Positions 10,746-35,525 of a stretch of 64,000 bases of DNA are shown here, one piece after another; position 1 is the first letter of the stretch; each line of letters opens with the position of its first letter. The position numbers and the translations under genes were made by a program. The notes below the pieces were generated by a model that was not told the DNA's origin, did no database searches, and was given only the letters and a program-made list of their open reading frames with translations. The stretch covers positions 1,017 through 65,016 of the forward strand of contig JAUNGC010000022.1 in assembly GCA_030524745.1 (NCBI GenBank), read 5' to 3'. The stretch is from Eubacteriales bacterium (lineage in GTDB: Bacteria; Bacillota; Clostridia; Lachnospirales; Lachnospiraceae).

Positions 10746-11489
10746 TTATAAAGTTTGAATTTCCATATTATTCCTATCGTAATAGTAAACATGTTCCGAT
10801 AAAAAACCTGATTTGTCTTTCATCTTCTGATTGGCGGAATTCACCAGTTCCTGCAAGCGTTCCTTTGTCTCTGTACCGCCCTGCGGCAAAAGAATCACCT
10901 CATGGACGCTGGACGGCAGAATATAAAAGCCGCTTTTGAGTTTTCGGGAAATTTCCTGCAGAATTCCCGGATAGAGCAGGGATGCGGCTCCAAACAGCCA
11001 TCGTTCATTTCCCAACACCCACATCGGTTTCAGGCCGCTCTCCTCGCGCCGTTTCTGACCGATTTTCCTTGTCAGAACGCAGGCGAGTTCGTCCAGCACT
11101 TCTTCCTGTGTCTGCGTATATTGTTTCTTCAGCATGCGCCGGATCACATCTTTCTCAGAGCCCCGCAAAGAACTCTCCATCAGGCGCTCCATCGAAAACA
11201 GGCGGGGCGGCAAAATCTTCCACATATTCTCAACCGCATCCTGTAAAAGCCGCTGCGGCTCCATTCCCCACTGGGCCATCTGCAGCAAAGAGACCGGATG
11301 CCCCATGGCTCTTCCACGCTCATTTTCCCGAAAAAGACAGGGCACTGCGGCGAGATCCGCAAATGCCCTGCTAAACGGCACCCGACGCAAATATTCGGTA
11401 TCTGCAAGTCCGATCAGCCTGATGATCAGACGCTGCTTTGCCTCATTATAGTTAGAATAAAAAGTATCATTCTCCATCATGCAATCCAT
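10746..11489 (-). CDS. DUF5688-like protein
   Basis: GAASLLYP...L...FYILPSSVHEVI motif and LS.HVYYYDR C-terminus. Confidence 0.75.
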   Translation of the reverse strand: MDCMMENDTFYSNYNEAKQRLIIRLIGLADTEYLRRVPFSRAFADLAAVPCLFRENERGRAMGHPVSLLQMAQWGMEPQRLLQDAVENMWKILPPRLFSMERLMESSLRGSEKDVIRRMLKKQYTQTQEEVLDELACVLTRKIGQKRREESGLKPMWVLGNERWLFGAASLLYPGILQEISRKLKSGFYILPSSVHEVILLPQGGTETKERLQELVNSANQKMKDKSGFLSEHVYYYDRNNMEIQTL

Positions 11490-15438: not shown

Positions 15439-16246
15439 AAAAATTCTGTTTTCCGATATGGACGGCACACTGCTCACCTCGGATAAAAAAGTATCCCCCT
15501 CTCTGCAGCGGCTTCTTACAAAAATGGTACACGCCGGAAACCGCCTGGTGCTCACCTCCGGCCGTTCCTTAGGCAGCATCTTAAACGTTGCGCAGCGCTC
15601 CGGGCTTCTGTTTCCCGATACGCTCATCATCACGACAAACGGCAACGAAGTCTATGATTATGACGGCAGACAGTTTCTTCTGCGCAAAACAGTTCCTATG
15701 GATATTGCGCAGGGCGTCATCGATCTCGCCCACAAATACGGCCTGCATATCCAGTCTTATAACGACAGCCATGTCGTCTGTGAGAAAGATTCTTCCGAAC
15801 TCGCTCACTATAAAAAGGCGACCGGTATGGACGCCTTTTTTACGGATGATATCATGGGCGCAATCAAAACGCCGCCGAATAAGCTTCTGGCAATCAGTCT
15901 GGAAAGCCGTTCCCGCCTGGAACCTCTCCGTCAGGATGTGATCCGGTTATACGGCGACAGCGTCACGGCCATGTTTTCCTGCGACCAATATCTGGAAATT
16001 TTTGATAAGACTGCCGGAAAAGGCAACGCGATCCGCTTCGTCTGCGATTACCTCGATGTTCCGCTGTCCGGCGCAGTCGCCGCCGGAGATGCTGAAAATG
16101 ACATTTCCATGCTGGATATGGCCGGGATCGGAGTCGCCATGGCAAATGCGGACCCGCAGGTAAAAGCGCATGCGGACTTCATCACAGAACACGACAACGA
16201 TCATGACGGACTGGCAGATGCGATCTTAAAATATTTTTCGCTTTGA
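15431..16246 (+). CDS. Cof-type HAD-IIB hydrolase
   Basis: DMDGTLL, TSGR, KGNA and GDAENDISM. Confidence 0.92.
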   Translation: MSEKILFSDMDGTLLTSDKKVSPSLQRLLTKMVHAGNRLVLTSGRSLGSILNVAQRSGLLFPDTLIITTNGNEVYDYDGRQFLLRKTVPMDIAQGVIDLAHKYGLHIQSYNDSHVVCEKDSSELAHYKKATGMDAFFTDDIMGAIKTPPNKLLAISLESRSRLEPLRQDVIRLYGDSVTAMFSCDQYLEIFDKTAGKGNAIRFVCDYLDVPLSGAVAAGDAENDISMLDMAGIGVAMANADPQVKAHADFITEHDNDHDGLADAILKYFSL

Positions 16247-16262
16247 CAAACTTACTTTTCCC

Positions 16263-16390
16263 CTACTCCGCCCAGACTTCATTTCCTTCCTGACCGGACA
16301 TCAGCCACCGGGAAACGCGTTCTACGCTGATGCTGTCCGTATAAAAGGAAATCCGCGCGCCTTCTCCGTCTTCGAGTATGGCACACAATT
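16263..16390 (-). pseudogene. Orphan 3' remnant of a homolog of the 22139-22660 gene
   Basis: Translates to ...LEDGEGARISFYTDSISVERVSRW...WAE*. It is 11/22 identical, ungapped, to DAEGRVYSYDTDQISVEKVLQY of the 22139-22660 product. No start or RBS. Confidence 0.7.
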
Positions 16391-16432
16391 TGCGTCTAAA
16401 CCAAGTGCACGGTTTGAGCGCTTACCAAACTG

Positions 16433-18184
16433 TCACTTATCCCCCTCATTACAAGCTGATACCACCAGTGAATAAAAATCGGATTTCTGCTCCATAAGTT
16501 GCTTGTACGTGCCGGATTCACTGATTTTACCGTCAGAAATGACCAGAATCTCATCAAAACGTTGCAACACAGAAGGTTCCAGATAGTGCGTAACAATAAT
16601 TTTGGTCATCCCCTTCAAGTCCAGAATCGTATTCAAAATATTCGCAGCAGTAGGCTTATCCAATGCAGCCGTTGCCTCATCAACCAACAGGATATGTGCG
16701 GAACGCAGCAGGCAACGGGCTATGGCAACTCTCTGCTTTTCACCTCCGGAAAGGTTTGCTCCTTCTTCACCGCACAGATAGTCCAATCCCTTCGCATCTG
16801 CCAGTCCGGACAACCCCGCAAATTCAACTGCCTTTTGGACGCAATTTCTCTCACTATGTTTATACAGTGTGATATTATTCAAAATGGAATCATTAAAAAC
16901 ACATACATCTTGGTCAATAACAGAATATAGCTTATACAGAGCACTCTGTGCAATGGTATTCAATTCAGTACCATCAACCCGAATGCTGCCCCTGTAATCA
17001 CGGTAATTGCCCAAAAGGATATTGAGCAGAGTGGTTTTACCGCTTCCCGTATGCCCAACAATAGCGTAACTCTTTCCGACTTTGAAAGAAAAGGACAGAT
17101 CTTTCAATACGTTTTTCTGATGTTCATATCCAAAATTTAGACGATCTAGCACAATATCATTTTCAAGTATACCGGATATTTCAACCCCCGATTCCTCCTG
17201 TCCTCTGCCGAGCAGTTCAGCCATTCTTCCCACCAGCCCGGAAGCCGCCTTTTTCTGCGCCATAATATTAGGAATTGAAACGATAGGGGAAACAACAAAC
17301 CCCATGAGGTTCAAAAATACAATAACCGTACCCGATGTGATATTTTCCCCGGATAACGCCATAAATGCAGCGCAGATAAAAATACCAAGCTGCGCGATAA
17401 CGCCTGCTCCTGCAGCGCATAGATTTACGAGTTCGGAAGTTTTCCTTCGTGTACATTTCGCATATTCAAGCTGATTATTCCGTACCCGGAACATACTCAT
17501 CATTTCCCCTTCAGCCTGAAAAGCCTTGACAATGGAAATTCCTGAAAGGACTTCCTTCACACAATTGACAAAACATTCATTGTTCTCTGAGACCAGTTTT
17601 TCGTCTCTGGCAAGTTTACTGCCAAACATAATTGATGATGTCACCGGCAGCATAGCAAAAACGACAGCAAGCAATGTAAGAAACGGACTATATTGCAGCA
17701 TCACAATAAACGCAAATACCAAACCGATGCTATCCATATAAAAAGTAAAAAGTACAGACAGGTAATTTGTTTCTATGGAAACAACATCGTTTGTAAGCAT
17801 AGAAATGTATTTTGACGTGTTTTCGGCACTAAGAGAAGATTTGTCCAGATCCAGCAAATGTTCGAAGGCAAATTCCTTATACTGCGTTGTTGCCCTGCGG
17901 ATGAAAGTTGGAGAAGATTGTCTCTGTATCAAAAAGACAATGATGAGAAGCACGAAAACACCAACAGAATACAGGCTGAGGTGTACCAACCCTGCCATGT
18001 CGTTCTGCGCTATTGTGTCAATAATCTTCTGCAGCAACACCGATATACAGACGTTCAACGCCGAAAGAAATGTGAGACATACTACGGTGATAACAAGCAT
18101 CTCGACATTGTTTTTGATAAATGTATGCTTCAATTCCCGACGCACGATATCTACATTTTTTTCAGTAACATTCAATTTTCTCAT
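16433..18184 (-). CDS. Fused ABC exporter (TMD + NBD), no C39 peptidase domain
   Basis: About six TM helices, GHTGSGKT, LSGGEKQR and VDEATAALD. GGAGG RBS before ATG at 18184. Confidence 0.92.
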   Translation of the reverse strand: MRKLNVTEKNVDIVRRELKHTFIKNNVEMLVITVVCLTFLSALNVCISVLLQKIIDTIAQNDMAGLVHLSLYSVGVFVLLIIVFLIQRQSSPTFIRRATTQYKEFAFEHLLDLDKSSLSAENTSKYISMLTNDVVSIETNYLSVLFTFYMDSIGLVFAFIVMLQYSPFLTLLAVVFAMLPVTSSIMFGSKLARDEKLVSENNECFVNCVKEVLSGISIVKAFQAEGEMMSMFRVRNNQLEYAKCTRRKTSELVNLCAAGAGVIAQLGIFICAAFMALSGENITSGTVIVFLNLMGFVVSPIVSIPNIMAQKKAASGLVGRMAELLGRGQEESGVEISGILENDIVLDRLNFGYEHQKNVLKDLSFSFKVGKSYAIVGHTGSGKTTLLNILLGNYRDYRGSIRVDGTELNTIAQSALYKLYSVIDQDVCVFNDSILNNITLYKHSERNCVQKAVEFAGLSGLADAKGLDYLCGEEGANLSGGEKQRVAIARCLLRSAHILLVDEATAALDKPTAANILNTILDLKGMTKIIVTHYLEPSVLQRFDEILVISDGKISESGTYKQLMEQKSDFYSLVVSACNEGDK

Positions 18185-18262
18185 AACCTCCAATGAGTAT
18201 TTCTCCATTCCAGATTCATGATAATTACGAACTTAATGCGGAATCCTCAAACCATATTTTGT

Positions 18263-18553
18263 TTATGTACGTTGAATTTTTAGTGCAGTCGTATAACTTG
18301 CTGCATTAACCGTTGATTCAAGATCAATATTATCTCCGATATAATAACCTGAACGAATGTACTCATTTAGTGCTTCCTCAAACTCTCTGCATGAGGATAT
18401 TCCCAACGATTCAAGTTCATCGGAAATTCCTTGGAATAACTCCTGTAGGTTATGGCTTTTTAAAATTTCCTGCAGTATTTCTGGTTTATTTAAGAAATCG
18501 AAAATTTTTGCCATTTGAATTGTTGGTACTCTGTCTATAACCACATCATTCAT
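18263..18553 (-). CDS. 96-aa acidic protein, candidate RiPP precursor
   Basis: AAAGGAG RBS before ATG at 18553. Lies between the radical SAM genes and the exporter. The ORF itself is solid, but the precursor role is inference. Confidence 0.6.
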   Translation of the reverse strand: MNDVVIDRVPTIQMAKIFDFLNKPEILQEILKSHNLQELFQGISDELESLGISSCREFEEALNEYIRSGYYIGDNIDLESTVNAASYTTALKIQRT

Positions 18554-18644
18554 ATTATACTCCTTTCTCAATTGACTTACTTCCATTTAAAGATTCCGCA
18601 TTCAGCTACTATGTTAAATATTTATATAAATAGACCACATCCAT

Positions 18645-20477
18645 TTAAAGATTCAGCAATCTAGAAAGATAGTAAACATCTTGGCTGATTTTTTCAATAC
18701 TCAATTTCCCTCCAAGTCTGGAAAACCTTATAAACGTCATTTCATACACTATTTTTTCTTCTCTAAGAGCCTTAAATATATCAAAGTCAAACTTAAACAT
18801 TTGTGTCATTTGATTTTGATTTTTACCAAAAAAATAATATTGCTTTTCAAAAGAATAAATTTGCTGCAAGTATTCGTAATCCGCCCCCTCTTCTCCATCT
18901 AATTCATTTTGAATAATTTTAGATACAAAATCAAAACATTTATCACTCCCGTTCCTTTCTTCATCAAAATCAGTGGAATATATCATATAATTCGATACTA
19001 ACTGCTTATGAAACTCGTCAACTTCTTTTCTATTACGATTGAACAAACATTCCAATGAATACTTTTTGATTAAAAACTGCACTGACTTATTGAAGAAAAT
19101 CATTCCCGTTGTAAGAATCGATAAAAAATCGTCAAAATTTTTATATCTTATAAAAACTTCTGTATCAAATGTATAAAACTGACTAAATAATTTAGGATAC
19201 TTTTTTATCAATTCAATCCCATAACTTGTAAAATGCCGTTTCTCCGATTTTGTCATCCTCATGTTCTCCAAATCAAAATAAAGCGCGTCTTTTGATACTT
19301 TATCAATTTCCTCACCACCAGTAAAGAGCATGAGTCTATGTAACTGTACAGATTTTATACCAAGAAGCAAAATTTTCTCTATTAATTTTAGAGTATCCCT
19401 AAAATCTTCAACTGTTTCATGAGGAAATCCAAAAATAAAGGATGCAGTTACATAATCAATCCCGATTTGTTTCATATATTTTATAGTTTGTTCAACTTTA
19501 TCAATATTAAGATATTTTTTTATATCTTTTTGCATTTTTTTTGATCCGGTTTCTATTCCGAGATATATTTCAACGCAATTTGCTTCCCGCATTTTGTCCA
19601 AAAGCACTTCATCAAGTATATCTATTCTTGATGAACAGGACCATTCAATATCCAGTTTTTCTTTAATAACTCTATCACAAAACGCAAATATGTAAGATCG
19701 ATTCGCTGTAAAATGATCGTGCACAATATAGAATTTCTTTAAGTCATATTTCACTCTATAACATTTCATTTCTTCTATTATATCTTCAATTGGTTTTATT
19801 CGATGCACACGTCCCCAAAATAAACTTGTTGAACAAAAGGAACACTGGAACGGGCAACCTCTCCCTCCCTCAATATCAACAAACGGAATTTTATCATCAT
19901 AACGAATAGGAACCCCTACCGAATAATTCGTTAATTCACTTGCTGAAAGTAGTTCTGCCCTCTGATTTATATGGATCATTCCCATTTTATCTTTATAACA
20001 GATACTTGGAATAGTATCTAGCGGTGGCACATTCAAAGGTGACAATATAAAATTTACTAAAGGTAATATTATCTTTTCACTCTCACCAACGCATATATAA
20101 TCAATAAAATCGAAATTTGCTAAAATTTCTTCAGCAAGCACAGACGCATGTGGACCTCCCAAAATAATACTAATACCTCGATTTAACTTTTTTATCCTTT
20201 CAGAGATTTCTATTACCAATTCAAATGAATTGCAAATAGTGTAAAATCCAACAATTGAAGGGGATTTACACAATATATATTGTACAATATTATCTATATT
20301 GACATCCATATCTTCAATATATTTAAACGAAGAATTTTCATCTAAATTTAGTAAATCAAAATTAATACACTCCGATTCATATTGTTGATTAACTATTTTA
20401 TTAAGGATTAGTTGTCCCAACTGTGGTCTTACGTCTAGTTTACAAAAATCAATCTGATTGACAAACAATATATCCAC
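18645..20477 (-). CDS. Cobalamin-dependent (class B-type) radical SAM enzyme, putative C-methyltransferase
   Basis: N-terminal B12-binding region (IVGFYT, ILGGPHAS, ICVGESE), then GRGCPFQCSFC, GIETGS and FIFGFPHET. GTG at 20477 follows AAGGGG (alternative GTG at 20495). Confidence 0.88.
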   Translation of the reverse strand: MDILFVNQIDFCKLDVRPQLGQLILNKIVNQQYESECINFDLLNLDENSSFKYIEDMDVNIDNIVQYILCKSPSIVGFYTICNSFELVIEISERIKKLNRGISIILGGPHASVLAEEILANFDFIDYICVGESEKIILPLVNFILSPLNVPPLDTIPSICYKDKMGMIHINQRAELLSASELTNYSVGVPIRYDDKIPFVDIEGGRGCPFQCSFCSTSLFWGRVHRIKPIEDIIEEMKCYRVKYDLKKFYIVHDHFTANRSYIFAFCDRVIKEKLDIEWSCSSRIDILDEVLLDKMREANCVEIYLGIETGSKKMQKDIKKYLNIDKVEQTIKYMKQIGIDYVTASFIFGFPHETVEDFRDTLKLIEKILLLGIKSVQLHRLMLFTGGEEIDKVSKDALYFDLENMRMTKSEKRHFTSYGIELIKKYPKLFSQFYTFDTEVFIRYKNFDDFLSILTTGMIFFNKSVQFLIKKYSLECLFNRNRKEVDEFHKQLVSNYMIYSTDFDEERNGSDKCFDFVSKIIQNELDGEEGADYEYLQQIYSFEKQYYFFGKNQNQMTQMFKFDFDIFKALREEKIVYEMTFIRFSRLGGKLSIEKISQDVYYLSRLLNL

Positions 20478-20491
20478 GTCTGTTCCCCTTC

Positions 20492-21412
20492 TCACATCTT
20501 TTGTCTTTTCATGTATGGAAGCAGTTTAAAGTAATTATTTGAATTGAATAACAGTGCACATAGTTCGCACGAAGATATTACTTTGGAGGGATAATTAATT
20601 CCAACCCGATCAGCAATATTCAAAAAATAGTCAAATCCATATTCTCGTAGCGATGCCAAAAAAATATTTCTGCGCAATCTATCATATGCTTCTTCCAAAT
20701 CAATATCAAAAATATTTCCAACGCTCAACTTTGTCTTAAAAACATACGGGGAACAACATGGCCAGATATTACCATTACAATCAATCGAAAATGTCCCTGA
20801 TTTACGACAATAACTATTGGTGCAATCATATTCTCGTATATAGTTTAAACCTTCAATAGTGTATTCTGCATATCCAACTGGATAACACGGGATAAAAGCC
20901 ACTTGAACATCAGCAAGATGAGGTCCCAAAATTCCAAATATATTACTCAAATTAGAACTGGCAGTAATTACACACTGTAATGCAACGGTTAGTTTCAAAT
21001 TCTTTGCCGCCATAATAACATTAATTATATTTTGTATAGGAACAAAATCATAATGATATTCATCACAGCTCAAACCGATACCGTTCAATCCAGCCGCCTT
21101 CAACATCTCAAGTTTCTGATATGCACCTTCATATGTAACCGCCCAAAACGCATTACTTGTTATGCTACATATCTTTCCACCCTTTTTGACTTCCTTTACG
21201 TATGTCAATAAACTACTGAAATCCAAAAAAGGTTCTCCGCCTGAAAATCCAATCTGAGTTATTTCGGAAATTTTATCTGCCTGCCTTATATATTCGATAA
21301 CTTTATCAAAAGGTAACCATTCTTTTTGTGTAGGAGAACACGAAAAGCAGCAAATATCGCATTTAGCTGTACATTGATTTGTCAATAGAATTCCCATATT
21401 TTCATAATGCAC
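20492..21412 (-). CDS. YydG/EpeE-family radical SAM peptide epimerase
   Basis: CTAKCDICCFSCSP, SGGEPFLD, SNAFW, SCDEYH.DFV, WPCCSP.VFKTK and SCELC.LLFNS are co-linear with B. subtilis YydG/EpeE as recalled. GTG at 21412 follows GAGGTG. Confidence 0.82.
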   Translation of the reverse strand: MHYENMGILLTNQCTAKCDICCFSCSPTQKEWLPFDKVIEYIRQADKISEITQIGFSGGEPFLDFSSLLTYVKEVKKGGKICSITSNAFWAVTYEGAYQKLEMLKAAGLNGIGLSCDEYHYDFVPIQNIINVIMAAKNLKLTVALQCVITASSNLSNIFGILGPHLADVQVAFIPCYPVGYAEYTIEGLNYIREYDCTNSYCRKSGTFSIDCNGNIWPCCSPYVFKTKLSVGNIFDIDLEEAYDRLRRNIFLASLREYGFDYFLNIADRVGINYPSKVISSCELCALLFNSNNYFKLLPYMKRQKM

Positions 21413-21511
21413 TACTATCACCTCAATTCGTATTATCGTCCAGCCTTATAATCCAAACCCATCCATAGTACACTGAAGCTATATTCAAACTATTTCTTTA
21501 AAATATATTTT

Positions 21512-21540
21512 ATTATAGCATCAGTAAGATATTTATGCAA
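21512..21540 (-). promoter_or_regulatory. Sigma-A promoter of the radical SAM operon
   Basis: TTGCAT-N17-TATAAT with an extended -10 TG. Confidence 0.75.
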
Positions 21541-21543
21541 TAT

Positions 21544-21557
21544 TGCCATATATGGCA
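21544..21557. promoter_or_regulatory. Perfect 14-bp palindrome TGCCATATATGGCA, candidate operator
   Basis: Lies 3 bp upstream of the -35 and overlaps a second palindrome, GCAATATTGC (21537-21546). Confidence 0.5.
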
Positions 21558-21658
21558 CCATCTAGATCTGAAATTATATACAAAATTTTATCGTATCAAT
21601 CGGGTTTTTGACACTTTTTAACAAAGAGTAATTAACTCTGACATCTGCACTTACTTTA

Positions 21659-21741
21659 TTATAATAAGGGGAGTAATTGGTCCGATGTGGGCTTGGGTCA
21701 TTACATCCGTTAAAAAAACGTTAACCAACCCCTTATTATAA
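21659..21741 (+). other. Nested inverted-repeat element (possible structured ncRNA or miniature element)
   Basis: Outer arms TTATAATAAGGGG/CCCCTTATTATAA. Inner pairs TTGGT/ACCAA, GATGT/ACATC and CGTT/AACG. Confidence 0.35.
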
Positions 21742-22082
21742 GTATTCGATTAAGTAGGTAGGTATATCTTATAAGCGAACAGATCTGACGGATGATTTAC
21801 ACAAGACATTCGATTTTCATACGGATTATGAATTCACCTCAAAATCAGCCATGCGAAGCATAATAAAAGTATCAAAACAGAAAAAGTAAAAAAATAGCAC
21901 AAATCGTTTTCGAAAAAGAAATGTATACAGACCAAAAATACTGGATTTGTATCCGTTTTTTATTTTCATGTGCAATACTACCAATTTCAGCAGTAATAAT
22001 GTGTTCCGTAATAGCAGTTTAAATCAGCCTATTTTTGTATCTATCAATAATATATTTTCCCCCAAAAATTTTTCATATAAAA

Positions 22083-22128
22083 GTGATTGTCATATAAGTA
22101 ATCGCTAAATCACTTATATGACAATCAC
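22083..22128 (-). terminator. Rho-independent terminator ending the upstream minus-strand operon
   Basis: 17-bp perfect arms GTGATTGTCATATAAGT/ACTTATATGACAATCAC followed by TTTT on the minus strand. Confidence 0.8.
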
Positions 22129-22138
22129 CCACTTAATC

Positions 22139-22660
22139 TCATTTCCATTCAGAATTATTTTCTAATCTGCAATATTGCAGCACCTTTTCCACAGATATCT
22201 GGTCTGTATCATACGAATAGACGCGTCCCTCCGCATCAATGTATTGTACAAACACCCCATATATCCTGTCTGTCGAACTGTTTACCAATTTAACAGACCA
22301 CATATTCAGCAATGAGCCGTCTCCAAAATCAAGCGTAACAACAGCCTCTTCCTTTGGCGCGGTTCCGACTTTACCTGGTCCGCACGACGTTATGATATCA
22401 TAAAGTTTATAGGCATTGTCGCCAGACATCCGGATTTTCCGGTCATCCATATTAACCTGCAGACAATCATTCTCGTACGCGTATGTAATACTTTCTGATA
22501 AATCGCCGACAAAACGCCAATAGCGTCTTTGATACCATCCCGACCAGATAATCGAAAGTACAACAATCAAAATAACCAGGAAACACGCGCCAAGACCTGC
22601 AATAAGGGGCCACTCTGCTGACTTTTTTTTCTTTTCTTTTTTATTGATTACTTCATACAT
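22139..22660 (-). CDS. Hypothetical single-pass membrane protein
   Basis: Basic N-terminus, one TM segment, RBS AAGGA. Confidence 0.8.
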   Translation of the reverse strand: MYEVINKKEKKKKSAEWPLIAGLGACFLVILIVVLSIIWSGWYQRRYWRFVGDLSESITYAYENDCLQVNMDDRKIRMSGDNAYKLYDIITSCGPGKVGTAPKEEAVVTLDFGDGSLLNMWSVKLVNSSTDRIYGVFVQYIDAEGRVYSYDTDQISVEKVLQYCRLENNSEWK

Positions 22661-22672
22661 TTTTATTCCTTG

Positions 22673-22930
22673 TCAGCCCTCCACAATCAGATATCTTCCG
22701 TCACCCACTTCAAATACCTCGTCCGCTTCCAGAATGCTGTCGGCGTCTTCCATATCCACGCCCACTTCCTCAAAATACGCCCGCACTTCTTTGGGGGATT
22801 CCACCACAACTGCCATGCAATCCTCCAAAAAAGCTTCCGCTTCCCCCATGCTCTCCGCCACGTTCTCCGGAAAAAGCTGGCTCTGCTTTTTCAAAAAGCA
22901 CTGCAAAACGGCGTCATCATATTCATACAT
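22673..22930 (-). CDS. Conserved small acidic protein
   Basis: 85-aa ORF with a strong GGAGGG RBS, in operon context. Confidence 0.8.
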   Translation of the reverse strand: MYEYDDAVLQCFLKKQSQLFPENVAESMGEAEAFLEDCMAVVVESPKEVRAYFEEVGVDMEDADSILEADEVFEVGDGRYLIVEG

Positions 22931-22959
22931 ATCCTTCCCCTCCTTTTCTCTTTCTTTTT

Positions 22960-23754
22960 TTATTTTCCGTTTAAAAGGCGTACAATCTGCCAGACGCCTT
23001 TTTCTTTCCAGGACGGACAGATATGCTTCGCCGCCGCCTTGACATCCGGATGGGCGTTTTCCACCGCATAGCTTTCCCCTGCCGCCTGCATCAGTCCGAT
23101 ATCGTTGGTATTATCCCCAAAGGCCATGGTATCTTCCTTTGCGATGCCAAACGCCGTCTGAATCGTCTGCAATGCGTTTCCTTTATCCACAGAAAGGTCC
23201 ATGAAATCCACCCATTCCTCTCCCGCGACACAGGTCTTTAATCTGTCCTTCCAGGCGGGAATGAGAACGCTTTCTCCCAGTTTTCGGATGCTGTTCTTCT
23301 GATAAAGCGCAACCTTTAAAATGGGTTTTCCCTGCTTTAATATGTCGTCCACCACCTGAAAGTCGTTGTGATAGCCATAGGTCATCATATCCAGAAATTC
23401 CCGGTTATGCGTCTCCAACAGGCTTCCCTCCGGCGTGGAAACGATCATTTCACAGTCTTTGATTTTGCGAAGCTGTATAATCAGTTCTTCCGCATATTCC
23501 CTGCGCATCTGCGTTAACGCCAGATCTTTGTCCCGATATCGGATATGAGCCCCGTTTTCCGCGATATAAATAATTCTGTCCGCCACGTCCCGGAACACAT
23601 TGCGGATGCTGGCATATTGCCGGCCGCTGGCGCAGGCGAAATAAATTCCCTGATCCGTCAGCCGCAGGATTTCTTCCACAATTTCGGGGTACAGATCCGG
23701 CGTGGAATCCTGAATCAGCGTGCCGTCAATATCCGTCGCAATCAATTTTATCAT
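22960..23754 (-). CDS. Cof-type HAD-IIB hydrolase
   Basis: DIDGTL, ASGRQY, DKGNAL and FGDNTNDIG. Confidence 0.92.
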   Translation of the reverse strand: MIKLIATDIDGTLIQDSTPDLYPEIVEEILRLTDQGIYFACASGRQYASIRNVFRDVADRIIYIAENGAHIRYRDKDLALTQMRREYAEELIIQLRKIKDCEMIVSTPEGSLLETHNREFLDMMTYGYHNDFQVVDDILKQGKPILKVALYQKNSIRKLGESVLIPAWKDRLKTCVAGEEWVDFMDLSVDKGNALQTIQTAFGIAKEDTMAFGDNTNDIGLMQAAGESYAVENAHPDVKAAAKHICPSWKEKGVWQIVRLLNGK

Positions 23755-31967: not shown

Positions 31968-32243
31968 AAAGCTTAAAAAGAGAATCCTGTTTTACAGGAT
32001 TCTCGCGCTGCGCATACGGCTAAAGCCGCTTAGGTTGCCATCAGGCAACTCTTTCCTTTCCGCGCGCATGCGCATCCCCCGGAGGGCTTTTTTATGCTAT
32101 AGGAAATCCGAAGGAATTTCCTATGGCATAAAAAAGAACAGGCCGGGAATCCGCCATGGATTTCCGGCCTGCCAGTTCTGTTTGCTCCAGATATCACTTC
32201 CGTATGCGGCTATAAAAAGGATAAAAACAGAAAGAATTCAGAT

Positions 32244-32819
32244 TCAGGGATTTTCCTCAATAGCTTTCGTAAATTCTTCTATCGTTCCCGCCTTAGTAAC
32301 AAGCTTCAGCCACTTGCACAGTAGATTCTGATCCTTTTCCTGCACAATCCGGTCATGCAACTCAGTCGAAATCTCTCCAAGTTCGCTTAGCCAAATCAGA
32401 ATAGCCTCCGCTTTTCCCTCAGATTTTCCTTCATCAAATCCCATCTCATATTCAGCTTTACGGATCTTGCGCATTTCCTCTTCTTCATTATATTCAAAAA
32501 TTGACATTGCCACTACCTCCGATCGCTGCGCCGTCAGGAAATCGGAAAGGATTCCTTTCTGAATACATTCCGTGACGGCATGTTCTACCGCATCCTCAAT
32601 TTTCTCTTTATTCGCATATGCACGGACACAGGCTACATATTCACTGTATTCTTTCAAAGTCCTGCATTTTTCCATCAATTCGCTGTTGTTGCCCACATTG
32701 ATATTCAGCATCAGCACTTTCAGTTCCAGTTCCGGATCTTCCACATGCTTCTCAAACGCATCTGACAGCTTCAATATTTGTCTTTCCGGCTGCTTGCAGC
32801 TTCCATTGTAAAACACCAC
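32244..32819 (-). pseudogene. 5'-truncated Rpn / PD-(D/E)XK transposase-like family gene
   Basis: KIPVPRFVVFYNG...LELKV.MLNIN...C.TL.EYS...LSDFL...EV..M...EY..EE. An in-frame stop lies a few codons upstream, so the N-terminal domain is absent. Confidence 0.75.
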
Positions 32820-33115
32820 AAATCTTGGTACGGGAATCTTTACGCTCCTTTCTGCAATTGTGCGCAGGAAGCCGCTTTTTCTTCAGCAACCCCTGCCTGA
32901 TAAAGGTGAATTTTAAGCATAGAGTTTCTGAAATGAATGATAGATACAATGGAAAGCATGATTGGAATACTTTCCATTGTCATGAATAAGACGGTCTGTG
33001 ACCCGGATTCTTCGAAAGTTTATGCCCAAGATCATCTTATCACGATAATTGTCCGGGCTCAATCTTTTTTTGACTGTTCAGGGCAGAAAGAGACCCTTTC
33101 GATTCGCCGCCAGCA

Positions 33116-33556
33116 CTATTTGGTCTTCTTACTCCAGGTCATAACATATTCTTTTTCATTGGTGCTATCGTCAACATTTTCAGATTGTATTGCAAACTGT
33201 TCTCTCTGATAAAAGGAAACTGCGCGTGTGTTTTTCTGATAAACCCTTAAAATCATAGTTGACTTAATTTCTTTCGCATAATTCAGCAATTGCTTCCCGA
33301 TACCTTTTGACTGGGCGGCTTCTCTCACAAAAATACCCGCAATATAATTATTGTCTGTGAATCCGATGAAGCCATCTATTTGATTGGTCGTATCATCTTC
33401 ATACACATATACTTCTGCCTGCGGCAATATCTCATTTACTGTTGCATAATTATCAGTCCAATAATTCTCAGAGATAAAGTCATGCGCTTTCCTATTTGTT
33501 TTTAGCCATATCTGCATAACGGCAGCCAAATCATTCCCTCTCAATATTCTTATCAC
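33116..33556 (-). CDS. GNAT family N-acetyltransferase
   Basis: IAGIFV....SKGIGKQLL and N..A..FY. Confidence 0.88.
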   Translation of the reverse strand: MIRILRGNDLAAVMQIWLKTNRKAHDFISENYWTDNYATVNEILPQAEVYVYEDDTTNQIDGFIGFTDNNYIAGIFVREAAQSKGIGKQLLNYAKEIKSTMILRVYQKNTRAVSFYQREQFAIQSENVDDSTNEKEYVMTWSKKTK

Positions 33557-33675
33557 GATATCGTCTCCTCATATTCCCTGCTCCCGAATCCAAAAGTGAT
33601 GCAAACCAAGTGAAGATTCCCCGTCGAACGGCATAACTGCTTTTTTTGTTTATACAGCCTGGTAATGCTGAAATA

Positions 33676-34149
33676 CTATATAAGCAATTCAAATTCAATC
33701 TCATGGCGCAAAGGTATGAAATTCTCACCAATTATAGGGATCTCCGGCTTTAATTTTCTTGATATATCCATAGCATTCCGGAACAGATGCGCCATATCAA
33801 ATCCCCGTTTCTGATAAAATCTGATCGCATTAATATTGTCATTTGTCGTGATAAGAACAACTTTTTGAAGATTTCTTTCTTTCGCTTCCCGTATGACAAG
33901 TTCCAGGAGTTTAGTACCAATTCCCTGATTTTCCCGCAAGCTGTCAAGTGATACTATCTCCAGTATGTTTTCATAAACCAAATATGTTATTAAGCCAATA
34001 ATAGCTTCCCCATCTCTAAAACAGAATCCTTCTGTTTTAGTCACATCAACTTCCCTGCCACGAATAATCATCGTTGTGGTATACCAACGCTGTTCCATAA
34101 ACTCATTGATCTGATGCCGGTTCAAGCTGTCAATTCTTTCACATTCCAT
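33676..34149 (-). CDS. GNAT family N-acetyltransferase
   Basis: SLDS..ENQGIGT and ITTNDN.NAIRFYQKRGF. Confidence 0.88.
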   Translation of the reverse strand: MECERIDSLNRHQINEFMEQRWYTTTMIIRGREVDVTKTEGFCFRDGEAIIGLITYLVYENILEIVSLDSLRENQGIGTKLLELVIREAKERNLQKVVLITTNDNINAIRFYQKRGFDMAHLFRNAMDISRKLKPEIPIIGENFIPLRHEIEFELLI

Positions 34150-34181
34150 ATGTCATTGTCTCCCTGCATAAACCGGGGCTG

Positions 34182-35525
34182 TTATCCCATTATAGCCTTC
34201 CGTTCCATTTTCCGCATGACAAACCGATAGGAAATCCACAGAAAGACACCCGTAATTCCCCATGCGCTCGCGTTCGCGCAGCACACGCCTTCATAGCTGA
34301 GCAGATGCGCGGCGATAACCGCAACCACCGCGCGGCAGACCAGTTCCACCACGCCGCCCATCATGGGCAAAAAGCCGTAACCGCAGCCCTGCATGACATT
34401 GCGATAAATAAAGATCATTCCCAGCGGAATGAAGAAAATACCGCAAATCGTGACATAAATGCGCACATAGGACAGCACTTCCGTCAGATCTCCCGCCAAA
34501 AACAGACGGACCACCCAGGGCAGCGTAAGTTCCAGCACCGCATAAGCGGCTACGGAATAGACCGCAGACATCCAAAACGCAATTTTGGCCCCTTTTTTGA
34601 TCCGGTCCAGATTTCCGATTCCCCTGTTTTGCGCGCTGTAGGTGGCCATGGTCATCCCCATCGCCCCGTACACCTGGGTCACGAACTGTTCCACCTTGCA
34701 TGCCACCGTATAGGCCGCAACTACGGTGGAGCCGAGCATATTCAGCGCCGCCTGCACCATAATCGCCCCGACCGCCGTGATGGAAAACTGCAGCGCCATG
34801 GGGATGCCGATGGAAAGCTGGTTTTTCATGCACCAGGCCTCCGGCTTAAAATGCTGCTTTCCAATCTGCAAAAGAGGCACTTTTTTCAAAATATAAAGCA
34901 GACACAGCAGACCGGAAACGCCCTGGGACGCGACGGTGGCCACTGCAGCGCCCGCCACGCCCATTTGAAACACAATAATCAGCACCAGATCCAGCACCAC
35001 GTTCAAAACCGCCGCCAGAATCAGAAAGTACAGCGGCACTTTGCTGTTTCCCACGGCGCGCAACATGCTGGAAAGCAGATTGTATAAAATGGTGAAGCCC
35101 ATCCCCAGACAAATAATGAGTATGTAAGTTTTAGACATCTCAAAAATGTCATCCGGCGTCTGCATGACGCGCAGCAGCCATCCCATTCCCGCCGCGCTCA
35201 GAATCGTCATAAACACTGTGACAATAGCGGACAGAATGTAGCTGTTTCCTACGCTTTTTTTGACGCCTTCTTTGTCTCCCGCCCCGAATCTCTGGCTTGT
35301 CAGCACCGTAAATCCGGTGGTCAGTCCCTGCATGAAGCCAAGGATCAGAAAAGATATGGTCCCCGTCGCTCCTACCGCCGCAAGCGCCTGCACGCCCACA
35401 AACTGTCCGACGATGACAGTATCCACCACGCTATAAAGTTGTTGAAATATATTGCCCAAAATAATGGGAATGATAAACTTTACAATCAGCCGAAAGGGGC
35501 TTCCCTTTGTCATATCAAGTTCCAT
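34182..35525 (-). CDS. MATE family efflux transporter
   Basis: MTKG.P, QQLYSVVDT..VG, RAVGNS..PL and about 12 TM segments. Confidence 0.95.
   Translation of the reverse strand: MELDMTKGSPFRLIVKFIIPIILGNIFQQLYSVVDTVIVGQFVGVQALAAVGATGTISFLILGFMQGLTTGFTVLTSQRFGAGDKEGVKKSVGNSYILSAIVTVFMTILSAAGMGWLLRVMQTPDDIFEMSKTYILIICLGMGFTILYNLLSSMLRAVGNSKVPLYFLILAAVLNVVLDLVLIIVFQMGVAGAAVATVASQGVSGLLCLLYILKKVPLLQIGKQHFKPEAWCMKNQLSIGIPMALQFSITAVGAIMVQAALNMLGSTVVAAYTVACKVEQFVTQVYGAMGMTMATYSAQNRGIGNLDRIKKGAKIAFWMSAVYSVAAYAVLELTLPWVVRLFLAGDLTEVLSYVRIYVTICGIFFIPLGMIFIYRNVMQGCGYGFLPMMGGVVELVCRAVVAVIAAHLLSYEGVCCANASAWGITGVFLWISYRFVMRKMERKAIMG

Follow-up and report, generated by a model that had tools for sequence, protein, structure and literature searches.

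An EpeE-like and a cobalamin-dependent radical SAM enzyme encoded side by side on an island of a Lachnospiraceae chromosome: a candidate pathway to a modified peptide

Introduction

Radical S-adenosylmethionine (SAM) epimerases have been described as the sole installers of irreversible D-residues in ribosomal peptides, and two kinds of them are known to us, the PoyD type and the EpeE type. Many uncharacterised gene clusters exist for ribosomally made peptides with post-translational modifications (RiPPs) that involve radical SAM enzymes, and as far as we are aware the pairing of an epimerase with a cobalamin-dependent (B12) radical SAM enzyme was previously known only for the unrelated epimerases of the proteusins. 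The subject of this article is a cluster of four genes in a 64,000-nucleotide stretch of DNA (contig JAUNGC010000022.1, positions 1,017 to 65,016, assembly GCA_030524745.1, from a member of the Lachnospiraceae), hereafter the window, in which genes for an EpeE-like enzyme and a B12 radical SAM enzyme are followed by a small open reading frame (ORF) and an exporter gene. The explanation that we favour, with a probability of roughly 0.6, is that these genes were acquired horizontally and direct the synthesis of a ribosomal peptide with radical SAM modifications (RaS-RiPP), in a pathway by which a substrate of 96 amino acids (aa) would undergo EpeE-like epimerisation and B12-dependent C-methylation and then be exported. 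An earlier note on the same DNA, made from the letters alone, had proposed a hybrid system of this kind, and its claims are taken up below where the evidence bears on them.

Described systems and how the locus compares

The operon epeXEPAB (yydFGHIJ of Bacillus subtilis, with plasmid-borne relatives) encodes, in this order, the YydF precursor, YydG, a peptidase, an ATPase of the ATP-binding cassette (ABC) type and an ABC permease. What it has in common with the window cluster is the EpeE fold, nine cysteines that include the hydrogen-donor Cys223, a precursor peptide made on the ribosome whose core is at the C-terminus, and export by ABC proteins. The differences are several: the window enzyme is distant in sequence, scores below the YydG cutoff and does not conserve Asp210; the precursor belongs to another family (the YydF/EpeX model TIGR04077 does not match it even at E <= 10, and gives a real YydF 75 bits) and its gene stands after the enzyme genes, not before them; the window has no EpeP/YydH-type peptidase and a single fused ABC protein instead of a separate ATPase and permease; and it adds a gene for a B12 radical SAM enzyme.

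The proteusins, exemplified by polytheonamide with PoyD and PoyB/PoyC, follow the same logic, since a radical SAM epimerase and cobalamin radical SAM enzymes act on one long-leader peptide (PMC8326336, PMC11285071). The claim that they use a different epimerase family is borne out: PoyD-type epimerases have no auxiliary-cluster twitch domain and carry a C-terminal RiPP recognition element (PMC13012085, PMC8326336), whereas the window enzyme is of the EpeE type, with the cysteines of an auxiliary cluster. In addition, the B12 enzyme of the window matches the PoyB/C-type family TIGR03975 with 88 bits, as against 256 for ApyD, and the predicted core has some 11–15 residues, as against approximately 48 in proteusins. 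The proteusins are thus a functional parallel, not a case of shared membership.

ApyD, of the aminopyruvatide pathway, is the curated family on which the window B12 enzyme scores best; both belong to RiPP pathways, and both substrates have a conserved tyrosine. The likeness covers only part of the protein, however, and the Apy cluster has P450, methyltransferase and multinuclear non-haem iron-dependent oxidative enzyme (MNIO) partners and no EpeE-like enzyme. Another enzyme with a cobalamin domain that works on a RiPP core, PbsB of the pathway to biphenomycin-like peptides, acts on aromatic residues (PMC12257519); it joins two hydroxylated aromatic rings by a C–C cross-link and works with an MNIO, whereas the window has no such partner and its predicted core a single invariant tyrosine. 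As regards precursors, those of the Nif11 and NHLP types, which are cleaved after Gly-Gly and exported by C39-ABC proteins, likewise have a short core at the C-terminus, after a helical leader that measures about 70 residues, but the window peptide matches neither model, has Ala-Ala in place of Gly-Gly, and is accompanied by an exporter that lacks a C39 domain.

The earlier note knew of no characterised cluster with this architecture, and the literature agrees with it as far as the search reached: no description of a YydG/EpeE-type enzyme paired with a B12 enzyme was found, only general reviews, in a search whose full-text coverage largely leaves out subscription journals.

The four-gene operon

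The minus strand carries four consecutive, close-set ORFs of 306, 610, 96 and 591 aa, which together span 16433-21412; all of them are found where the earlier note had placed them (Table 1). The Pfam domains are Radical_SAM and SPASM in the first, B12-binding and Radical_SAM in the second, and ABC_membrane and ABC_tran in the fourth; Pfam gives no domain for the 96-aa ORF. The first gene starts at the GTG at 21412, with a GAGGTG ribosome-binding site 6 nt ahead, and its homologues have an ATG at the equivalent position. The B12 gene starts at the GTG at 20477, preceded by GAAGGGGA and located 14 nt past the TGA of the first gene; an alternative start, the GTG at 20495, would overlap that stop codon by 4 nt. 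Both spacings are exactly those noted before, and the NCBI annotation has the 610-aa form. The ATG of the 96-aa ORF (18553) is preceded by an AAGGAG ribosome-binding site.

The description of the locus as an AT-rich island is likewise accurate, with a gradation: the content of G+C (GC) is 30-34% in the two radical SAM genes, the small ORF and the 5' spacer, approximately 41-42% in the ABC gene and in a further ORF of the insertion (orf173), and about 50% in the flanks. Judging from the recurrence of the same set of genes in independent metagenome contigs, at 46-64% protein identity, the arrangement exceeds chance.

The EpeE-like radical SAM enzyme

The earlier note had placed the first enzyme in the YydG/EpeE family, and in every comparison EpeE/YydG is indeed the top match. 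Among the NCBIfam models TIGR04078 (YydG family radical SAM peptide epimerase) fits best, over the full length, with 199.6 bits and E 8e-59; the sequence matches in the PDB are the EpeE/YydG entries 8ai1-8ai6 and no others, at E ~1e-38 (best 6e-39); and the AlphaFold2 model (predicted local distance difference test, 95.8) is matched by Foldseek to EpeE with a template modelling (TM) score of 0.92 and a root-mean-square deviation of 2.2 Å, the next fold being SkfB at 0.60.

The cysteines were analysed in an alignment of 52 sequences, namely the window enzyme, B. subtilis YydG and 50 relatives. Although the window enzyme is only 29% identical to B. subtilis YydG, it retains all nine of its cysteines. 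The radical SAM cluster motif is present as CTAKCDIC (C14, C18 and C21 of YydG), C22 of YydG is retained as well, and the columns of CxxxCxxC are conserved in 49 of the 52 sequences. The cysteines at YydG positions C206, C222, C289 and C292 are invariant (52/52), and they are assigned here as the putative ligands of a single auxiliary [4Fe-4S] cluster in an extended twitch (T-SPASM) domain. The hydrogen donor Cys223 is retained as the second cysteine of a PCCSP motif (Cys220 in the window enzyme) and is conserved in 49/52; in EpeE this residue finishes the epimerisation by returning a hydrogen atom to the radical at C-alpha (PMC13012085).

The relatives that are associated with B12 enzymes behave alike on the family model: all of those tested (L001, L004, L007 and two in L089, in our numbering of loci) score 200-222 bits on TIGR04078. 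Since the window enzyme and all these relatives fall below the curated YydG cutoff, we conclude from the sequence comparisons that the enzyme is of the EpeE type and belongs to a distinct sister group, and that it is not a certified YydG orthologue.

The cobalamin-dependent radical SAM enzyme

The 610-aa protein has the domains that define a class B (cobalamin-dependent) radical SAM enzyme, as judged by its Pfam matches (N-terminal B12-binding, PF02310, 46.2 bits with a cutoff of 32.1; PF04055, 85.5 bits with a cutoff of 29.5) and by a GCPFQCSFC motif. Methylation is the usual reaction of B12 radical SAM enzymes in RiPP pathways. The top curated family is NF050148, ApyD, which reportedly makes beta-methyl-tyrosine; the match covers residues 12-445 of the protein and positions 12-434 of the 645 of the model, and domain and family searches give no match for the C-terminal 170 aa. 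The earlier proposal of a B12 radical SAM partner therefore stands, in the sense that the protein is a class B enzyme whose nearest curated family is a RiPP enzyme.

The predicted precursor peptide and its family

A profile search of 5.8 billion sequence clusters returned five members of the 96-aa peptide family and no more. All five adjoin the pair of radical SAM and B12 genes, whichever the orientation and across four genomic settings that are unrelated to one another, which agrees with the earlier expectation that homologous clusters would keep a small ORF. The N-terminal parts of these peptides have diverged (28-29% identity), and the invariant columns are A84, Y87, T88, T89, K92 and Q94; a second alanine (A85) is present in all five sequences, though out of register in the five-sequence alignment. 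The AlphaFold2 model of the peptide, of modest confidence, has four helices over residues 11-68 and an unstructured, low-confidence tail over 70-96.

A comparison with hhalign of four members of the family and the Gly-Gly precursor of two distantly related loci (L007/L087) gave a probability of 84% and E 7e-6 over 57 columns, both profiles being very shallow; in this alignment the Ala-Ala of the window family sits where those relatives have Gly-Gly. No other small ORF is conserved among the family loci. Given the association of the family with the enzyme pair, the invariant tail, the related Gly-Gly precursors and the lack of any other conserved small ORF in these loci, we infer that the 96-aa ORF encodes the substrate, with a long helical leader (~70 residues) and a core of 11-15 residues.

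Two lines of search came to nothing. When the 96-aa peptide was used as the query of an exhaustive HMMER search, the only matches were the peptide itself and, weakly, a 523-aa repeat protein (E 3.6e-4), which was judged spurious. Short ORFs in 21421-22139, upstream of the first radical SAM gene, were considered as alternative precursors and discarded, as they are not conserved in L001, L004 or L093.

Homologous and related loci

The closest homologous loci (L001-L003, radical SAM enzyme 64% identical to that of the window) have the same four genes directly behind an agrB/agrD-like/kinase/LytTR module. In a second group (L093/L094, 63%) an IS110 element lies between the B12 gene and the small ORF, and in a third (L004-L006 and L091/L092, 46-48%) the small ORF is divergent and is located upstream of the enzyme pair. 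The setting in the window is that of a chromosomal island.

More distant EpeE-like genes (35-42% identity) have a B12 radical SAM gene less than 3 kb away in L007, L008, L010, L087/L088 and L089/L090. These loci add extra SPASM enzymes, C39 peptidase and ABC genes, and Gly-Gly-leader precursors with cores of approximately ten residues (for example ...GVDGG|LFDFHYHAKS, ...VVGG|IKIGSLYIEKA and ...VAGG|GCSLSIFRMC). The L008 precursor passes the NHLP model (55.2 bits, with a cutoff of 50.9), and that of L007 is a weak match to Nif11. The hybrid proposed earlier is therefore real as a pairing of an EpeE-like and a B12 enzyme, but it is not a one-off, as the pair recurs across Clostridia with several types of precursor. 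In a scan of the GTDB representative genomes the window's own genome and the 63% relatives were not among the matches listed, and the species distribution is to that extent incomplete.

Some details of these loci deserve to be recorded. The module that directly precedes the operon in L001 (4968-7811, also L002 and L003) is of the agr quorum-sensing type and encodes a LytTR regulator, a kinase of the HATPase_c_5 type, an AgrD-like peptide of 51 aa and AgrB; it is not in the window. A LytTR fragment and an AgrD-like 42-aa ORF lie beside the cluster in L090 (11155-11774). In L093 (6564-7739 and 10772-13100) the transposase gene of IS110 separates the B12 and precursor genes and an IS21 pair lies just downstream; its sequence shows that the cluster lies there in DNA rich in insertion sequences (IS). 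L004-L006 lie on a mobilisable element with genes for a relaxase and MobC; in L004 (1-7105), where the enzyme pair is the 46%-identity version and the precursor gene is transcribed divergently, the relaxase gene is accompanied by those of a MobC/NikA-like protein and of a 3001-aa protein with helicase and MutS_I domains.

Among the distant loci, the larger cluster of L007 (5345-11855) and L087 (141-13894) encodes three radical SAM enzymes, one each of the SPASM, EpeE-like and B12 types, and two different Gly-Gly precursors, one with the core AAPILGPIK and the other with LFDFHYHAKS; three ABC genes are also present, as are genes for a STAS protein and a membrane phosphatase of the SpoIIE type. 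L089 (4241-11075) has a B12 radical SAM gene, then two tandem EpeE-like genes and a 40-aa Gly-Gly precursor (core IKIGSLYIEKA); it also encodes an ABC exporter and, as a protein of its own, a C39 peptidase.

The exporter

The 591-aa protein combines PF00664 and PF00005, and its NCBIfam matches are to MsbA-like and bacteriocin-exporter families, all under their cutoffs. It is 54-57% identical to the ABC proteins of L001 and L093 and 37-38% identical to those of L087 and L089.

Proposed pathway and alternative explanations

In the pathway that we favour, the leader of the 96-aa peptide, a helical stretch of ~70 residues, would dock both enzymes, and the C-terminal tail A-A-x-Y-T-T-x-x-K-x-Q would be modified. 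The EpeE-like enzyme would take a C-alpha hydrogen by means of a 5'-deoxyadenosyl radical, and Cys220 would return a hydrogen from the opposite face, leaving one or more D-residues. The B12 enzyme would transfer the methyl group of methylcobalamin to an unactivated carbon, for which our best guess is the C-beta of the invariant tyrosine, on the model of ApyD, the closest relative among the curated families, which is said to make beta-methyl-tyrosine. The product would be exported by the fused ABC protein. As the island has no peptidase and the exporter no C39 domain, the leader would be cut by an unlinked protease, encoded outside the island, possibly after the conserved Ala-Ala, to give a peptide of approximately 11 residues. 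The product is most likely a small modified secreted peptide of a rare type, which may act as an antimicrobial or as a signal, and the cluster probably represents a new subtype of radical-SAM RiPP cluster, not a categorically new one.

Several findings weigh against this pathway, and a number of them would suit an alternative that we consider unlikely, namely a RiPP cluster with the same substrate but another chemistry, for example a C–C or C–heteroatom cross-link that the EpeE-like or the B12 enzyme would form on the Tyr/Thr/Lys/Gln motif, or a B12-dependent C-alpha methylation. The residues modified by EpeE are Val and Ile, whereas the invariant core of the window family is made of Tyr, Thr, Thr, Lys and Gln, and the conserved Ala-Ala of one family core (ETYTTDQKYQYTQKK) is followed by a stretch that lacks Val, Ile, Leu and Ala; the target must therefore differ from that of EpeE, and the epimerisation site would probably lie inside the invariant motif. 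The window enzyme and its clade stay under the TIGR04078 equivalog cutoff of 300 bits, while a canonical YydG, plasmid-borne in Macrococcus, passes with 431. The EpeE residue Asp210, which PMC13012085, citing Kubiak 2023, describes as a proposed proton relay that re-protonates the thiol, is not conserved: it aligns to Thr (MAFFT) or Ser (HMMER), the column is variable across the clade, and an Asp four residues downstream of it occurs in the closest relatives only. The label of an EpeE-type enzyme, as given in the earlier note, thus holds for the fold and for the nine cysteines, Cys223 among them, and is qualified by the missed cutoff and the absence of Asp210. On the side of the B12 enzyme, the ApyD match is partial and far under its cutoff (256 vs 750 bits); the cross-linking of aromatic residues by PbsB means that non-methylating members exist (PMC12257519); and the B12 radical SAM enzyme QCMT, according to PMC13469106, acts at C-alpha and can epimerise. 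What speaks for epimerisation and C-methylation all the same is that the hydrogen-donor cysteine, specifically needed to finish epimerisation, is kept in nearly all of the aligned sequences, that the fold is nearly identical to that of EpeE, and that the B12 enzymes of RiPP pathways in the papers cited here are, PbsB apart, C-methyltransferases (PMC11285071).

The identity of the substrate has also to be weighed. The 96-aa protein might be an accessory factor (a peptide-binding chaperone, a regulator or an immunity factor), in which case the true precursor would be encoded elsewhere or by a short ORF that escaped annotation, an explanation that we regard as improbable. It would fit the length of the protein, which is great for a precursor, and the helical bundle of the AlphaFold2 model; it would also fit two negative results that count against the favoured pathway, namely that the peptides of the window, L001 and L004 match neither TIGR03798 (Nif11) nor TIGR03793 (NHLP) nor any other curated leader family and have no Gly-Gly motif, and that Pfam and NCBIfam find no protease in the island and no Peptidase_C39 domain on the exporter. 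Leaders of 60-80 aa, however, are established in RiPPs of the Nif11/NHLP type (TIGR03798, TIGR03793), the five loci have no second conserved small ORF, the N-terminal part resembles the leader of a Gly-Gly precursor from a related cluster (in shallow profiles), and conservation is strongest in the extreme C-terminal tail, which is modelled as disordered, as expected of a core peptide. Slightly less probable still is that the island is cargo, silent or decaying, from which this host makes no product. In favour of this are the foreign, AT-rich nature of the DNA, the IS110 element that interrupts the L093 homologue and a promoter scan without a significant site; on the other hand, the four ORFs are intact and have good ribosome-binding sites, they match their homologues from end to end, and the catalytic cysteines are in place.

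A bolder form of the favoured explanation, which we put forward tentatively and to which we give somewhat less than even odds, is that the cluster is among the founding members of a class of RiPPs that is new. In that class an invariant Y-T-T-x-x-K-x-Q tail on an unusually long leader would be modified by enzymes of the EpeE sister group acting jointly with a dedicated radical SAM enzyme of the cobalamin type, giving a short product with D-residues and C-methyl groups (or a new cross-link) that would be spreading on mobile DNA among gut Clostridia, maybe as a signal; the last suggestion is made because the closest homologue stands directly behind an agr quorum-sensing module. In any case, the locus points to a sister group of EpeE in its own right, whose members are as a rule paired with B12 radical SAM enzymes. 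If the proposed pathway is true, a gut commensal would have in these four genes a compact means of making short peptides that are D-configured and C-methylated, genome mining would gain a new family of precursors, and the invariant Tyr-Thr-Thr/Lys/Gln targets would widen the substrate range of both types of enzyme. Together, the empty site described below and the mobile contexts of the homologues show that the cluster moves between gut Clostridia, which bears on competition or signalling in the microbiome.

The inserted island and its host

Two syntenic loci of related Lachnospiraceae (L095 and L096, with Ppk1 proteins 84-86% identical to that of the window) were compared with the window by blastn, and window positions 23754-22670 and 16251-15400 align. 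Gene order is common to all three, ppx-ppk-maf-HAD-Cof-orf85 and then the convergent Cof-PHP-ABC-F, and the interval between orf85 and the convergent Cof gene measures 36-192 bp in the relatives as against 6.4 kb in the window, for which reason 16252-22669 is regarded as an insertion. Along it the GC content drops from ~50% to 29-43%; none of the repeats found is a target-site duplication at its ends. The earlier note had an operon in an island, and the operon is there, but it is only part of the insertion, which also holds orf173. Window Ppk1 is 83-84% identical to proteins labelled 'Lachnospiraceae bacterium' and 75-77% identical to those of Eisenbergiella, in agreement with the Lachnospiraceae host proposed before. 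By these comparisons the cluster is a horizontally acquired one on a Lachnospiraceae chromosome.

A plasmid origin was considered and rejected, as the best plasmid matches are canonical YydG genes at 29% identity and the cluster occurs on no plasmid of the collection. An anti-phage defence system was rejected as well, as PADLOC shows generic radical-SAM and ABC similarities only.

Table 1. Features of the island and of its four-gene operon, in window coordinates.
Feature	Position	Strand	Description
Inserted island, orf173 + four-gene operon	16252-22669	.	~6.4 kb; blastn vs syntenic loci L095, L096
Fused ABC exporter gene	16433-18208	-	591 aa, transmembrane domain + ATPase
20-nt inverted repeat flanking precursor ORF + ribosome-binding site	18232-18251 / 18586-18605	-	
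Predicted precursor peptide gene	18263-18553	-	96 aa, helical leader + conserved C-terminal core
Predicted core, residues 84-96 (AASYTTALKIQRT)	18266-18304	-	Y-T-T-x-x-K-x-Q preceded by Ala-Ala
Cobalamin-dependent (class B) radical SAM gene	18645-20477	-	610 aa, GTG start
EpeE/YydG-like radical SAM gene, T-SPASM-type domain	20492-21412	-	306 aa, GTG start
5' intergenic region of operon	21413-22081	-	downstream of orf173 terminator hairpin
Terminator-like hairpin	22082-22129	-	20-bp stem + T-run, closing orf173 transcript
orf173	22139-22660	-	membrane-anchored (N-terminal anchor), cargo of same insertion

The product of orf173 has no match in Pfam, NCBIfam, PADLOC, the plasmid collection or any of the fetched loci, and the gene is missing from the empty-site relatives; it may have an immunity or accessory function, or else be cargo with no such role.

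Upstream region, promoter and repeats

Because orf173 ends in the terminator-like hairpin, the promoter of the operon must sit in the 5' intergenic region (Table 1). The candidate that the earlier note called a consensus promoter consists of TTGATA (21599-21594) and TATAAT (21578-21573), separated by a spacer of just 15 nt, and a promoter scan of this AT-rich DNA gave 31 sites, with 25.6 +/- 5 expected from shuffles, which is no excess over chance; the description is too strong, and the pair of boxes is a candidate promoter. The 5' region gives no meaningful alignment with the upstream regions of L001 or L093 and hence no conserved regulatory motif. A riboswitch or other RNA element in the 700-nt leader was also considered and rejected, since the Rfam scan of 16000-23000 at E <= 1 returned one chance match.

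The 20-nt inverted repeat around the precursor ORF forms a long-range stem in the minimum free energy and centroid folds of 18222-18612(-), with z = -3.3. There is also a 25-nt direct repeat (18579-18603 / 18637-18661), the second copy of which spans the stop codon of the B12 gene. The long-range stem may mark RNA processing or the stabilisation of a precursor-only transcript. In L001 there is instead a perfect hairpin of 16 bp (11142-11177) right after the precursor gene.

A perfect 17-nt inverted repeat (16207-16223 / 16792-16808) joins the 3' end of the chromosomal gene for a Cof-type hydrolase to the inside of the ABC gene of the island; both copies encode GLADA, and the chance expectation is, as a rough estimate, ~0.002 per 8 kb. 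The ABC gene has a GC content of 42% in the window and 34% in L001, the window radical SAM genes having 30-34%; this difference and the 17-nt repeat may be the trace of a mosaic origin or of recombination.

Elsewhere in the window, positions 32000-34200 form a second patch of low GC content (38-44%), with two ORFs that, judged by eye from their translations, are acetyltransferase-like, and a 191-aa ORF that resembles a fragment of a recombination-promoting nuclease; this patch may be another small acquired segment.

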